Positions 33,282-35,220 of a stretch of 37,769 nt of DNA are shown one piece after another. The stretch lies in the IMG/VR virus record IMGVR_UViG_3300045988_104068; one strand, written 5' to 3'. Position numbers and translations under genes: made by a program. Source of the DNA: a virus. The number at the start of each line of letters is the position of its first letter. Position 1 is the first letter of the stretch. A model generated the notes under the pieces. The model was not told the DNA's origin and searched no databases. It saw only the letters and a list, made by a program, of their open reading frames with translations.

Positions 33282-33470
33282 TTATTCGATGCCGGGCGGG
33301 AGCTTGCCAATCCCTTTCAAAGCTTCATATGCAGCACGGGAAGCAAGCTGTTCTGGCGGGGCAGGGCTGTCCAGCATGTCGCACATTTCATCATACTTGT
33401 GGTCGATCGGATGTTCAAGAAGCCACCTCTGCATTTTTGCAATGCGTTCCGGTGTAAGCCAGTTACTCAT
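33282..33470 (-). CDS. Small protein (62 aa) coupled to the MuF-like gene
   Basis: MSNWLTPERIAKMQRWLLEHP... Overlaps the MuF stop by 8 nt. RBS GGAGTGA. Confidence 0.6.
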   Translation of the reverse strand: MSNWLTPERIAKMQRWLLEHPIDHKYDEMCDMLDSPAPPEQLASRAAYEALKGIGKLPPGIE

Positions 33471-35220
33471 AGTATTTCACTCCATTTTCCTGAAGGTCTC
33501 CGATAGCCTGTCGGATCAGCTTCTCTGCCTGTTCAAGAAGCTTTTCGTCTGACAGTTCCGCGCGAGGGATATTTTTCAGCCGGTTTATTTCGGCATTCAG
33601 GCCCCAAACAATGCCGTTTGCAGCGGCAGCATCATAATTGATACTTTTCTCAACAGCATAGATATGACCATTGTGACCGATGGCCGTCATGAGCTTCAAA
33701 TTTTTGTTTCTTGTGAAACTCGACAAATCACCGTGCGAGAAAATACCGCAGGCAGGGTGTGTGTGGATAACAACATACGGGGTATCAAAGTTGGGCAGCT
33801 GAACAGAACTTCCCTCGGCGCTTCCCGTGATGTCCTTCGTCAGCGGCTTCATCTTGATATCGAACACCCTGCCCACTTCAACATTTTCCGGCTGCTTTGA
33901 AGCGACCATGAGAAGTCGCTTGTGGGCGTTTTTCAGCTGCTGCTGCCCGGCGGCATCCAGTGTGTCACAGCTGAACGCCTTAACATTTGCAATTGACTGC
34001 ATTGTAACAGGTTTCGCCTTTGTGTTCAAGCTGCTGTATGTAGAGGATGCCTTCCGCACCTGTGCGCTTGCTCTGCTGGCTTCGCTCCTGCCGAACTTCG
34101 GCACGCTGGTGCGGGCGCTGTCTACTCTGCCACCGGTGGCCTGCGTAAAGTCTTTCAGGCTCTGGCGGGCGGCTCTCAGGCGCACAGCGCTGTCGGTGGG
34201 GTCTAGCCCGGCAGCATCCTCGGCCAGATACCGCTTTTTCCAGCGGCGGACGTTCCGCTCCCGGGCGTGCTGCATCTGGGATATCTCGTAGGCGGTGTAC
34301 TTTTTGCCGTTCCACTCGATGTTCCGGGCGTTCAGCTCCCGCAGCTGTTCCTGTGTCCATTGGGGCGGGTCGCCCAGCTCCGGGAACACCGCGAAAAAGG
34401 TGTGGCGGCAGTTCCAGCCGCAAAGGCCTGCGCCGGTGCCGTAGCCGGTGGCGGCTTCAAAATCCGGGTAGTGCCTGCCCTTGTAGTCCACCGCACCACC
34501 GCGGTGAAAGCGCCGTCCCTGCCACTCTGCATGAGAAGGACGGGCACCGCCGTGGGCGGTCGTCTCCACAAATTCGCAGCCCATTTCGTCCATGCGGGCC
34601 ACCTGCAGCTTGCCAGTCGTCTGGTTTACACCGGTGAGCACGGCACGGCGGGCGGCCACCTCGATGCTGTCCTTGTGGCCGCTGGGATATGTGACCATGG
34701 GCATGTCGTCTGCAAGGCTGTCCACAGCCTGTTTGACGGCGGTTTTGTAGTCGAAGGCACCGGTGCTCACCTTGAGCCATGCAGCGTCCAGTGTGCGTTC
34801 AAAGGCCCCTGTGACGGTGTTTGCCGTGGTGGCGGTCAGGTTCTGCCATGTGCCGCAAGTCTGCCGCGCGCCGGCATCCAGCAGGTTGTTCAGGGCGGCG
34901 TTCTCTTCAAAAGGGGGCGGCTCCATGTCGTAGTGGTAATAAATCGCATCCTCCCGCTCCATGGCTTCGGTGGCGGCCTGCAAAAGCAGCTTGCGGATGG
35001 CCGTTTCGCTCTTGCCGGTGTACTTCGCCAGCAGCTTCACCACGTCGTTGCGCAGCGCCTCGGTCTGCTGGTAGCGCCACAGCTGCCAGTTGGCGGTGGG
35101 GGTCACGGCGTTCATCTTGCCGATGCGCCGGGCAACGTCCTGCAGGATCTGCTCTTCGACCTGCTGCCAGAGCTGCACAAATGCGTCCGGCATCTGGTCG
35201 AGGTAAGACGGCGGCAGCAT
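33463..35220 (-). CDS. Head morphogenesis protein (SPP1 gp7 / MuF family) with an extra C-terminal JAB/MPN-like domain
   Basis: MuF core ...VAARRAVLTGVNQTTGKLQVARMDEMGCEFVETTAHGGARPSHAEWQGRRF... The C-terminal ~170 aa contain PYVVIHTHPACGIFSHGDLSSF. Confidence 0.8.
   Translation of the reverse strand: MLPPSYLDQMPDAFVQLWQQVEEQILQDVARRIGKMNAVTPTANWQLWRYQQTEALRNDVVKLLAKYTGKSETAIRKLLLQAATEAMEREDAIYYHYDMEPPPFEENAALNNLLDAGARQTCGTWQNLTATTANTVTGAFERTLDAAWLKVSTGAFDYKTAVKQAVDSLADDMPMVTYPSGHKDSIEVAARRAVLTGVNQTTGKLQVARMDEMGCEFVETTAHGGARPSHAEWQGRRFHRGGAVDYKGRHYPDFEAATGYGTGAGLCGWNCRHTFFAVFPELGDPPQWTQEQLRELNARNIEWNGKKYTAYEISQMQHARERNVRRWKKRYLAEDAAGLDPTDSAVRLRAARQSLKDFTQATGGRVDSARTSVPKFGRSEASRASAQVRKASSTYSSLNTKAKPVTMQSIANVKAFSCDTLDAAGQQQLKNAHKRLLMVASKQPENVEVGRVFDIKMKPLTKDITGSAEGSSVQLPNFDTPYVVIHTHPACGIFSHGDLSSFTRNKNLKLMTAIGHNGHIYAVEKSINYDAAAANGIVWGLNAEINRLKNIPRAELSDEKLLEQAEKLIRQAIGDLQENGVKYYE

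Follow-up and report, generated by a model that had tools for sequence, protein, structure and literature searches.

The locus considered here raises the question of what is accomplished by a C-terminal domain fused to a minor head protein of a phage, and how a 62-aa open reading frame (ORF) lying at the end of the same gene is related to it. Throughout, the window is the whole stretch of DNA that was analysed, 37,769 nucleotides of IMG/VR virus record IMGVR_UViG_3300045988_104068. In an earlier note, the gene had been described as a MuF-type head protein carrying a JAB/MPN-like, metalloprotease-type domain and followed by a possible immunity gene. The coordinates of the features discussed are collected in Table 1.

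Table 1. Features of the MuF locus, with their positions in the window and the basis of each assignment.
Feature	Position	Strand	Basis or remark
Portal gene	35220..36710	(-)	PF05133 SPP1_portal, E 1.7e-6, and ORF coordinates
MuF fusion ORF	33463..35220	(-)	585 aa
MuF-superfamily carrier domain, residues 1-358	34147..35220	(-)	PF06152 and phrog_581 matches
Carrier end and linker, residues 359-390	34051..34146	(-)	Last residues ...VPKFGRSEASRASAQVRK; alignment of eight C-terminal classes
JAB/MPN-like C-terminal domain, residues 401-585	33466..34020	(-)	Family, AF2, Foldseek, hhalign, GC
E448, putative general-base Glu of JAMM-type site	33877..33879	(-)	Coordinates checked
H486-T-H488-P-x4-F-S495-x2-D498, putative metal-binding/catalytic motif	33727..33765	(-)	HTHPACGIFSHGD, coordinates checked
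62-aa ORF, putative neutralising/immunity partner	33282..33470	(-)	Coupled to MuF stop; family comparison
Terminator-like hairpin and T-run	33254..33268	(-)	Just 3' of 62-aa ORF

The head protein and its phage

The window contains an integrase, an S24/HTH CI-like repressor and an antirepressor, genes typical of temperate phages, and the nearest isolate is Faecalibacterium phage FP_Lugh; the source is a temperate Lughvirus-like Faecalibacterium phage. Its head genes follow the order portal, MuF, scaffold and capsid. The MuF gene lies directly 3' of the portal gene, with one base common to the portal stop and the MuF start codon (TGATG). By a Pfam profile search, residues 2-358 were assigned to PF06152 (Phage_min_cap2) with an E-value of 4.1e-123, and the same part matches the minor head protein phrog_581 (E 3.8e-116). 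Within the MuF superfamily, PF06152 is the branch called “MuF2” (Jamet 2017, PMC5576092). The first ~330 aa had been taken for a standard MuF/gp7 protein, and here the MuF type stands, although through PF06152 and not PF04233 itself, and the domain extends to about residue 358 instead of 330. The Ser/Ala/Arg-rich linker described in the earlier note is present as GRSEASRASAQVRKASSTYSSLNT.

A JAB/MPN-like C-terminal domain

The C-terminal domain is the founder of a large, previously undescribed family, which comprises 888 clusters at 50% identity. It had been placed in the last ~170 aa, where it is indeed found, but its length is about 185 aa (401-585); the core spans residues 418-530 and is followed by two long C-terminal helices. 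With few exceptions, members of the family form the C-terminal end of MuF proteins, which belong to three Pfam types (PF06152 in 31, PF04233 in 22 and VG15 in 4 of 59 domain-bearing proteins), and in 150 of 163 members the domain ends 15 residues or fewer from the C-terminus. A tblastn search with the domain against 50,697 GenBank phage records returned a single weak match; that collection thus essentially lacks the domain, which is abundant in metagenomes. Six loci were obtained from a genome-collection scan with a closer alignment of the domain.

The peptide quoted in the earlier note, ...SAEGSSVQLPNFDTPYVVIHTHPACGIFSHGDLSSF..., was found in the 585-aa translation, and the motif read from it, a Glu followed by H-x-H-P-x5-S-x2-D, was borne out by the family. 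Among 163 diverse members, H486, H488 and D498 are each 100% conserved, E448 is 99% conserved (and invariant among 59 full-length proteins) and S495 reaches 90%, its place being taken by T in 15 of the 17 sequences that depart from the strict motif. The spacing, recognised from the outset as one residue shorter than in the canonical JAMM motif, is itself a family trait, given that HxH-x6-S occurs in 146 of the 163. Such conservation across diverse members indicates that the JAMM-like motif is more than a chance resemblance. Mean column identity in the full-length alignments is only ~14%, yet all five JAMM-equivalent positions are near-invariant.

An AF2 model of the domain was obtained with pLDDT values of 94.6 for the whole and 96.4 for the core. 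In this model the HxH closes a beta-strand and the S..D opens the next helix, and the fold is extended by an additional N-terminal helix and by the two C-terminal helices. The fold search required trimming of the 185-aa model to the core, as the whole model gave weak matches, with CSN5 as the best in the PDB (E 0.013). The earlier note had proposed AlphaFold and Foldseek as a means of looking for a JAB/MPN fold, and with the core the best seven PDB matches were all JAB/MPN proteins (PfJAMM1 and RadC), with probabilities of 0.80-0.98 and TM scores of 0.41-0.55, at E-values of ~0.01-0.06 and an RMSD of ~7 Å or above. PfJAMM1 was matched with a probability of 0.98 and TM of 0.52-0.55, and RadC (2qlc), the second-best fold match, with 0.97. 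Below the best seven stood deaminase-fold and MPN proteins. The core thus scores nearly alike against PfJAMM1 and RadC.

A BFVD search with the whole domain returned, besides its own family, viral proteins annotated as JAB/DUB. Alignment of the family with that of RadC by hhalign gave a probability of 91-92%, confident over only 15-17 columns, against 2.6% or less for shuffled controls; in the extended alignment the E, HxH, S and D fall in register with RadC, E448 standing opposite the conserved RadC Glu. Prok-JAB was matched below threshold in three members (best E 0.006-0.015). At HMMER level the domain was compared with Pfam, NCBIfam, PHROGs, PADLOC and PDB sequences, and the one match, to phrog_5057 (function unknown), was weak. 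The window protein had no match at E<=1 to the JAB families of Pfam (PF01398, PF14464, PF04002, PF15659, PF14220), nor did the family consensus find a JAB match in Pfam (E<=10) or among PDB sequences. The conserved Glu/HxH/S-T/D positions, the PDB fold matches and the hhalign comparison with RadC support the assignment of the domain to a predicted JAB/MPN-type fold, at the grade of remote homology.

It could be argued that the resemblance to JAMM is fortuitous, the domain being a dead enzyme or a structural decoration and the small ORF unrelated to it. MPN- pseudo-enzymes are common in eukaryotes, and the non-canonical spacing of the motif together with the lack of HMMER-level homology to JAB families would suit such an explanation. 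However, pseudo-enzymes lose residues of this kind, whereas the five positions are near-invariant in 163 sequences, and a JAB domain is indicated by fold matches and hhalign alike. An inactive decoration was rejected on the grounds of these site residues and fold matches, and deserves hardly any credence.

Exchange of the domain together with its small neighbour

The ATG of the 62-aa ORF overlaps the MuF stop by 8 nt, inside ATGAGTAA, exactly as the earlier note had reported. The hairpin and T-run beyond it likely mark the 3' end of the cassette. The 62-aa family comprises 68 clusters and has no Pfam domain, and homologues are also encoded by contigs from Faecalibacterium genomes, some as long as ~3 Mb.

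A sister set of 80 IMG/VR loci was assembled, in which 78 MuF orthologues are complete. Over residues 1-390 these are 83-100% identical to the window protein, and beyond that point the 78 genes fall into eight unrelated C-terminal classes. The three large classes (JAB-like, CT2 and CT3) are each accompanied by a private downstream small ORF. Homology between classes stops at about residues 386-391, and on that ground the recombination junction is placed there. The GC content drops exactly at the junction, from 0.625 (~0.63) in the linker segment to 0.49 just downstream, which marks the domain as a foreign cassette. Among the alternative modules are PBECR2, an RNase-type toxin domain (E 9e-16), CT4, which carries an HExxH motif, and others devoid of peptidase motifs. 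CT2 showed a weak match to PF15659 (E 0.024), and its alignment, compared by hhalign with the JAB-like family and RadC, had an Neff of 1.

The isolate FP_Lugh offers a further example. Its gp21 is 74% identical to the window protein over residues 1-390 by BLASTP, and the match ends at 390, past which lies an unrelated HEYGH domain with a weak ATLF match. The small ORF that follows, gp22, has no similarity to the 62-aa ORF, a difference counted as evidence that domain and small ORF co-vary. Conversely, the same domain (72% identity) and the 62-aa ORF are found on a different MuF type, in a different head module with a PF05065 capsid.

The polymorphic C-terminus with a cognate small gene that the earlier note had envisaged is well reflected in the sister set, where a member of the 62-aa family stands behind 26 of the 27 JAB-type genes and behind none of the 51 others. 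This distribution also speaks against a small ORF unrelated to the domain, as an inactive decoration would have it. The two also stay together on carriers of the PF04233 and VG15 types, and where VG15-type or split MuF genes bear the same domain, the ORF behind it is 90-92% identical to the 62-aa ORF. In all five distant domain members the MuF stop is overlapped by a small ORF, with recognisable homology to the 62-aa ORF in L005 (55%) and L007 (36%). Divergence of the domain is correlated with that of the small ORF (Mantel r 0.84, with 0 of 2000 permutations as high), a correlation that could arise from plain linkage instead of physical interaction. Judged from these comparisons, the JAB-like domain and the 62-aa gene are exchanged as one unit among sister phages.

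By analogy, the 62-aa protein is likely the cognate neutralising protein of the JAB-like domain. Between some loci the small ORF is 90-92% identical and the domain 70-73%; a partner more conserved than the domain is unusual for fast-diversifying immunity proteins. The idea that the 62-aa ORF is a ubiquitin-like substrate was rejected, given that its sequence has no GG terminus.

The module exchange also bears on a possible role in virion assembly, in which the domain would process scaffold, capsid or MuF in place of a prohead protease, with the small ORF as an assembly factor. The gene is indeed located inside the head-morphogenesis module, with the portal on one side and the scaffold on the other, the ORF list and the Pfam results reveal no dedicated prohead protease gene in the interval from portal to capsid, and FP_Lugh has a different Zn-peptidase-like domain at the same position. 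However, carriers that are 83-100% identical bear unrelated modules, including PBECR2 and non-peptidase domains, and the slot is therefore not that of an essential maturation protease. Moreover, the domain recurs beside another capsid type and another MuF type, it co-varies with the small ORF and not with scaffold or capsid, and its GC content is that of a foreign cassette. A head-maturation protease was thus rejected because near-identical carriers hold unrelated modules, and an assembly role in general is considered very improbable.

Proposed function and comparison with known systems

The locus is best explained as a polymorphic toxin/effector cassette of the MuF kind, carried by a temperate Lughvirus-like Faecalibacterium phage, whose JAB-like domain is new and comes with a small partner; the probability of this reading is put at roughly two in three. 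The swapping of domain and partner as a unit places the cassette, as a new version, among the known capsid-borne toxin/effector systems of the MuF type. By analogy with SPP1 gp7, the MuF part would bring the whole fusion through the portal into the procapsid, so that the packaged enzyme would be ejected with the DNA into the next host cell. There, the JAB-like domain is predicted to be a Zn-dependent hydrolase with a target in the cytoplasm, which may be a peptide or isopeptide bond, the kind cleaved by JAMM enzymes, or else nucleic acid, the proposed target of the RadC clade and Tox-JAB. Like other MuF immunity proteins, the 62-aa protein would neutralise the domain by binding to it, in the cell that produces the phage or in a lysogen. 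Packaging, ejection, toxicity and neutralisation are steps that we infer by analogy, and we infer likewise an immunity role for the small ORF; the substrate of the domain, and any action against ubiquitin-like or cyclic-nucleotide defences, are matters of speculation.

A different use of the same delivery route would be counter-defence, the domain being not an antibacterial toxin but an (iso)peptidase that cleaves a component of host immunity early in infection, with Ubl conjugates of Bil/Bub-type systems and Cap2-primed CD-NTases as candidate targets and a small ORF that keeps the enzyme inactive or chaperones it during assembly. The best fold match, PfJAMM1 bound to SAMP2 (5lda), is a Ubl-deconjugating JAMM, and a bacterial Ubl-DUB complex (8tyx) and BubCD are also among the structural matches; yet the score of RadC is close to that of PfJAMM1, and the RadC/Tox-JAB clades are thought to have no groove for a Ubl tail (PMC3482391). 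Domains fused to MuF have been suggested to be effectors that are injected early (PMC5512222), and other sister modules are peptidase-like (HExxH in CT4, the weak ATLF match in FP_Lugh). Against this, the defence-associated JAB models of PADLOC, Cap3 included, show no similarity in sequence to the domain, and the RNase-type PBECR2 among the sister modules fits a generic toxin slot. Counter-defence is regarded as an unlikely alternative, if the foremost to be weighed against the toxin/effector cassette. In a more specific and still less likely form, the capsid-delivered (iso)peptidase would strip or cleave Ubl or another conjugate of host immunity (Bil/Bub-type, Cap2-dependent), and the 62-aa partner would be a pseudo-substrate inhibitor whose conserved C-terminal ...KLPPGIE tail occupies the active-site groove until packaging; if true, this would represent an injected anti-defence enzyme of a new class, widespread in gut phages.

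As a toxin/effector cassette, the locus extends a known reservoir, that of the C-terminal domains borne by MuF proteins. A large unnamed group of these (888 clusters, on PF06152, PF04233 and VG15 carriers) is assigned here to the JAB/MPN metallohydrolase superfamily, and both its catalytic-type residues and its cognate small partner are defined. The result is a clean candidate enzyme-inhibitor pair from abundant human-gut phages of Faecalibacterium and other Clostridia. With eight alternative modules on one carrier, the sister phages offer a natural experiment, and the group provides a way into what RadC-like and toxin-type JAB domains hydrolyse.

Among known systems, the MuF polymorphic toxins are defined by an N-terminal MuF-superfamily domain (PF04233, PF06152, MuF3 or MuF4), which is PF06152 here. 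Their position right after the portal in the head-morphogenesis module, their unrelated C-terminal domains on a conserved N-terminus, as in the 78 orthologues, their small downstream ORF peculiar to each C-terminal domain, and their occurrence in temperate phages and prophages are all matched by the present phage, whose host is a Firmicute gut bacterium. MuF toxins with downstream immunity ORFs have been established bioinformatically (Jamet 2017, PMC5576092), and for the Apk2 class toxin and immunity have been demonstrated by experiment (PMC12226406). Roughly two-thirds of the C-terminal extensions of MuF proteins have no recognisable toxin domain (Jamet et al., PMC5576092). In the consulted text of the MuF toxin papers, nucleases, HExxH metallopeptidases, ARTs and RelA-like/Apk domains are named and a JAB-like domain is not; the term “JAB” is absent from the main text of Jamet 2017 and is not a domain name in part of its supplements.

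The best structural matches of the domain belong to JAMM/MPN+ proteins (P. furiosus JAMM1, AfJAMM, CSN5, Rpn11; Prok-JAB PF14464), with which it has in common the upstream Glu, the HxH at the end of a strand and the S..D at the start of a helix. It differs from every canonical JAMM (HxHx7Sx2D) in having six and not seven residues from the second His to the Ser, and from the group as a whole in its extra N-terminal and two long C-terminal helices and in the absence of a significant HMMER match. No Ubl partner is evident either, the adjacent 62-aa protein ending without GG.

RadC-like JAB proteins (PF04002; E. coli YicR; C. tepidum RadC 2qlc) are common in prophages and polyvalent proteins. Their signature HNHPSG is identical to the family consensus, the full motifs being HNHPSG-x4-PS-x2-D in RadC and HNHPSG-x2-F-S-x2-D in the family, a one-residue deletion in the loop between HxH and Ser. 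RadC and the present family are both found in mobile elements and phages (PMC5512222). The domain is set apart from RadC by its flanking helices, by its fusion to MuF and by the small ORF that accompanies it; no PF04002 match was obtained for the window protein, family members or consensus. On the sequence evidence, the domain is a relative of RadC that falls outside the RadC family (PF04002).

JAB-type toxin domains are, finally, known in other polymorphic toxins (Zhang et al. 2012, PMC3482391). These are delivered by T2SS, T6SS, T7SS or Rhs, and MuF is not given as a route for Tox-JAB-1 or Tox-JAB-2 (Zhang 2012, PMC3482391); their immunity proteins, Imm65 and Imm-NTF2-2 (PMC3482391), are larger than the 62-aa protein and of another type. 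Nevertheless, Tox-JAB-1 (PF15659) and Tox-JAB-2 (DUF4329) resemble the cassette in being C-terminal JAB toxin modules with a cognate immunity gene, and the Tox-JAB-2 motif “E, H[ST]H, S, D” (PMC3482391) resembles the HTH of the domain described here.

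Layout and setting of the MuF gene

The MuF gene encodes 585 aa, contains the peptide quoted in the earlier note, and its first base is also the final one of the portal stop codon. Residues 2-358 match PF06152 (Phage_min_cap2) in Pfam with an E value of 4.1e-123; phrog_581, "minor head protein", is matched too (E 3.8e-116). In the scheme of Jamet et al. 2017 (PMC5576092), PF06152 forms the "MuF2" branch of the MuF superfamily, and the initial description of a MuF/gp7-like head protein is therefore correct at superfamily level. The other elements of that description were confirmed as well: a Ser/Ala/Arg-rich linker lies 3' of the MuF domain, the JAMM-like peptide and its glutamate, E448, are present in the C-terminus (see table), and the 62-aa ORF, which starts within ATGAGTAA, overlaps the MuF stop by 8 nt. 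Beyond this small ORF comes a terminator-like hairpin with a T-run.

Coordinates of the features in the window and in related loci
Feature	Sequence	Coordinates	Strand	Remarks
MuF gene	window	33463..35220	-	
Motif HTHPACGIFSHGD	window	33727..33765		in MuF gene; position checked
E448 codon	window	33877..33879		position checked
62-aa ORF	window	33282..33470	-	
Portal gene	window	35220..36710		PF05133
49-aa hydrophobic ORF (MITTVLITLMILALLEIVLLNGARLFFMIASAVQQAQDDKYTPHPHPKK)	window	33072..33221	-	AGGAGG ribosome-binding site upstream
tRNA-Lys(UUU)	window	32923..32999	-	between MuF cassette and scaffold gene
tRNA-Trp(CCA)	window	821..896	-	near left end
SNF2-family helicase + N6/N4 DNA methylase fusion	window	3961..6702	-	913 aa
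gp21	FP_Lugh (L001, NC_047912)	3390..5153		annotated only "minor head protein"
gp22	FP_Lugh (L001, NC_047912)	3203..3403		66 aa; overlaps gp21
Split MuF gene	L004 (relative, 72.5-kb contig)	3886..5642		
Phage_VG64 (PF25682) gene	L002 (relative)	6135..6512		125-126 aa
Phage_VG64 (PF25682) gene	L003 (relative)	3950..4327		125-126 aa
Phage_VG64 (PF25682) gene	L004 (relative)	5896..6276		125-126 aa

The genome in the window is that of a temperate phage, its genes including an integrase, an S24/HTH repressor, a Rha/ANT antirepressor, an M15 endolysin, tail genes and a head module; MuF toxins have been reported in temperate phages only (Jamet et al., PMC5576092). The SNF2/methylase fusion resembles the polyvalent/anti-restriction proteins described for phages. 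Just beyond the hairpin closing the cassette lies the 49-aa hydrophobic ORF, for which no Pfam match was found. Its motif occurs in 15 of 80 sister loci, one of them with a different C-terminal module, and thus the ORF is part of the backbone rather than of the cassette. Of the 80, 21 contain a 40-nt core of the tRNA-Lys. In three relatives the PF25682 gene separates the small ORF from the scaffold gene; in the window that place is taken by the 49-aa ORF and the tRNA-Lys.

The C-terminal domain family and its predicted fold

Searched alone, the last 185 aa of the MuF protein gave 0 matches in Pfam, NCBIfam, PADLOC and PDB sequences. By using a word-indexed search, 59 clusters of close relatives were retrieved, and an exhaustive profile search covering 1.84 billion cluster representatives yielded 888 proteins at E<=1e-3, 304 of them at E<=1e-10. 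The domain is a real, large and undescribed family. In 150 of 163 members covering the core, its end lies at most 15 residues from the protein C-terminus. The N-terminal carriers of 59 full-length proteins were PF06152 (31), PF04233 (Phage_Mu_F; 22) and VG15 (PF25310; 4), with portal domains in one or two; structural matches in BFVD were likewise C-termini of "minor capsid proteins" of uncultured sipho- and myoviruses. Close relatives in GTDB genomes came from gut Clostridia MAGs. Only 1 weak tblastn match was obtained in 50,697 GenBank phage records, thus the family is essentially unseen in this set of GenBank phages and abundant in metagenomes.

Across 163 diverse members, H486, H488 and D498 are kept in 100%, E448 in 99% and S495 in 90%, threonine replacing the serine in 15 of the 17 sequences without the strict motif, and P489, F494, G515, G518 and K525 are each at least 90% conserved. 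The shortened HxH-to-Ser spacing noticed in the single protein holds family-wide (HxH-x6-S in 146 of 163). The consensus, IHNHPSGxTFSxxD, includes the HNHPSG signature of RadC-type JAB proteins.

The structure-prediction check proposed at the outset agreed with a JAB/MPN-like fold. AlphaFold2 modelled the whole domain with a pLDDT of 94.6 and its core, residues 418-530, with 96.4. The model places the Glu after a long helix and ahead of the first strand, HxH at the end of a beta-strand, and S..D at the start of the next helix, before a beta-hairpin, as in the core of JAMM proteins. A Foldseek search with the whole domain returned weak matches, namely CSN5 (E 0.013) followed by BubCD and cytidine deaminases. 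When the domain was trimmed to its core, the best seven PDB matches were all JAB proteins, namely P. furiosus JAMM1 (5lda/5ld9; prob 0.98, TM 0.52-0.55) and RadC from C. tepidum (2qlc; prob reaching 0.97, TM reaching 0.48), followed by deaminase-fold proteins, the Mov34 MPN and a bacterial Ubl-deubiquitinase complex. Against an alignment built for RadC/YicR JAB, hhalign returned 91.3% probability (91.8% with the 164-sequence family alignment), the confident stretch spanning no more than 15-17 columns around HNHPSG, while 30 column-shuffled controls reached at most 2.6% and the reversed one 0.7%; relaxed alignment brought Glu, HxH, Ser and Asp into register with a single-residue gap. The family consensus gave 0 HMMER-level JAB matches in Pfam, and Prok-JAB matches were sub-threshold, in three members. 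At the grade of remote homology, the domain is a divergent, unnamed member of the JAB/MPN superfamily with its putative catalytic set intact.

The domain and the 62-aa ORF as a mobile cassette

The sister set comprised 80 loci from IMG/VR, each with a MuF N-terminus that shares 83-100% identity with that of the window. Eight unrelated C-terminal classes were found among the 78 complete genes, which bears out the expectation of a polymorphic C-terminus with its own small gene: the JAB-like class (27 genes) is followed by the 62-aa family in 26, vs 0 of the 51 others, CT2 (24 genes) by an 80-aa ORF in 23, and CT3 (19 genes) by a 69-aa ORF in 19 of 19. Homology between classes stops just past ...VPKFGRSE[AG]S[RK]A, at about residue 386-391, and GC content is 0.636 in the carrier, 0.625 in the linker, 0.49 in the domain, 0.52 in the small ORF and 0.61 in the scaffold gene. 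Pairwise identities of domain and small ORF are correlated (Mantel r 0.84, reached by 0 of 2000 permutations). The pair is also carried by a split PF06152 MuF and, within a head module of another kind, by a VG15-type MuF (72% identity for the domain, 92% for the ORF, same 8-nt overlap). Five more distant members with PF04233 or PF06152 carriers all have a 55-70-aa ORF over the stop, homologous to the 62-aa ORF in two (55% and 36% identity). The domain and the 62-aa ORF thus form a mobile cassette and a cognate pair.

Of the minor classes, one is a genuine PBECR2 RNase domain (E 9e-16) and another has an HExxH motif. In near-identical phages this slot is also filled by non-peptidase modules, which makes a head-maturation role of the C-terminal domain unlikely.

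The 62-aa protein family comprises 68 clusters, all of standalone proteins with no Pfam domain, Faecalibacterium prausnitzii genome copies included. The 106-aa database protein P0059 (NCBI, 39-kb contig) aligns with about the final 24% of the JAB-like domain as well as with 98% of the 62-aa ORF, which suggests a frameshifted or mis-called fusion over the 8-nt overlap. The split MuF is interrupted in the linker, a 347-aa PF06152 ORF and a 213-aa JAB-like ORF being separated by 71 nt, with the 62-aa ORF still downstream; possible explanations are pseudogenisation of the fusion, a sequencing error or a domain that is genuinely free-standing. CT2, an unrelated 195-aa module on the same carrier (24 loci; e.g., L013:3001 onward), contains ...NIHTHPP...S..D... 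and weakly matches Pfam Toxin-JAB1 (E 0.024); it could represent another JAB-type toxin of this slot, its alignment being shallow for hhalign comparison.

Among isolated phages, Faecalibacterium phage FP_Lugh is the nearest; its gp21 (587 aa) is 74% identical to MuF residues 1-390 and then carries an unrelated domain with HEYGH that weakly matches ATLF, the anthrax-lethal-factor-like family (E 0.011). Its overlapping gp22 was unrelated to the 62-aa ORF. Together, gp21 and gp22 resemble a MuF metallopeptidase toxin/immunity pair that has gone unannotated in an isolated phage.

Proposed role and relation to known systems

The analysis establishes the architecture, the conservation of putative catalytic residues, the predicted JAB-type fold, the cassette behaviour and the cognate pairing. 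By analogy with SPP1 gp7, the MuF carrier would dock on the portal, and a few copies of it would be packaged. The C-terminal enzyme would later be ejected into the next cell, where it would hydrolyse a cytoplasmic target; within the producer cell or lysogen, its activity would be neutralised by the small protein. JAMM enzymes are isopeptidases, and the earlier note had imagined an anti-Ubl or anti-CBASS effector; this is improbable, and the domain shows no Cap3-like similarity in PADLOC. For the RadC and Tox-JAB clades, nucleic acids have been argued to be the target (PMC3482391, PMC5512222).

Neither the domain family with its shortened motif nor its pairing with MuF carriers and a small partner was found in the curated libraries or in the literature consulted. 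The MuF polymorphic toxin with an immunity ORF is a system type known since 2012 and 2017 (PMC3482391, PMC5576092), and JAB-type toxin domains are known from Rhs-, T6SS- and T7SS-delivered toxins (PMC3482391). Portal docking and few-copy packaging of SPP1 gp7 are described in literature cited in PMC5576092, and the logic of a toxin and a neutralising small protein has been demonstrated for the Apk2 MuF toxins (PMC12226406).
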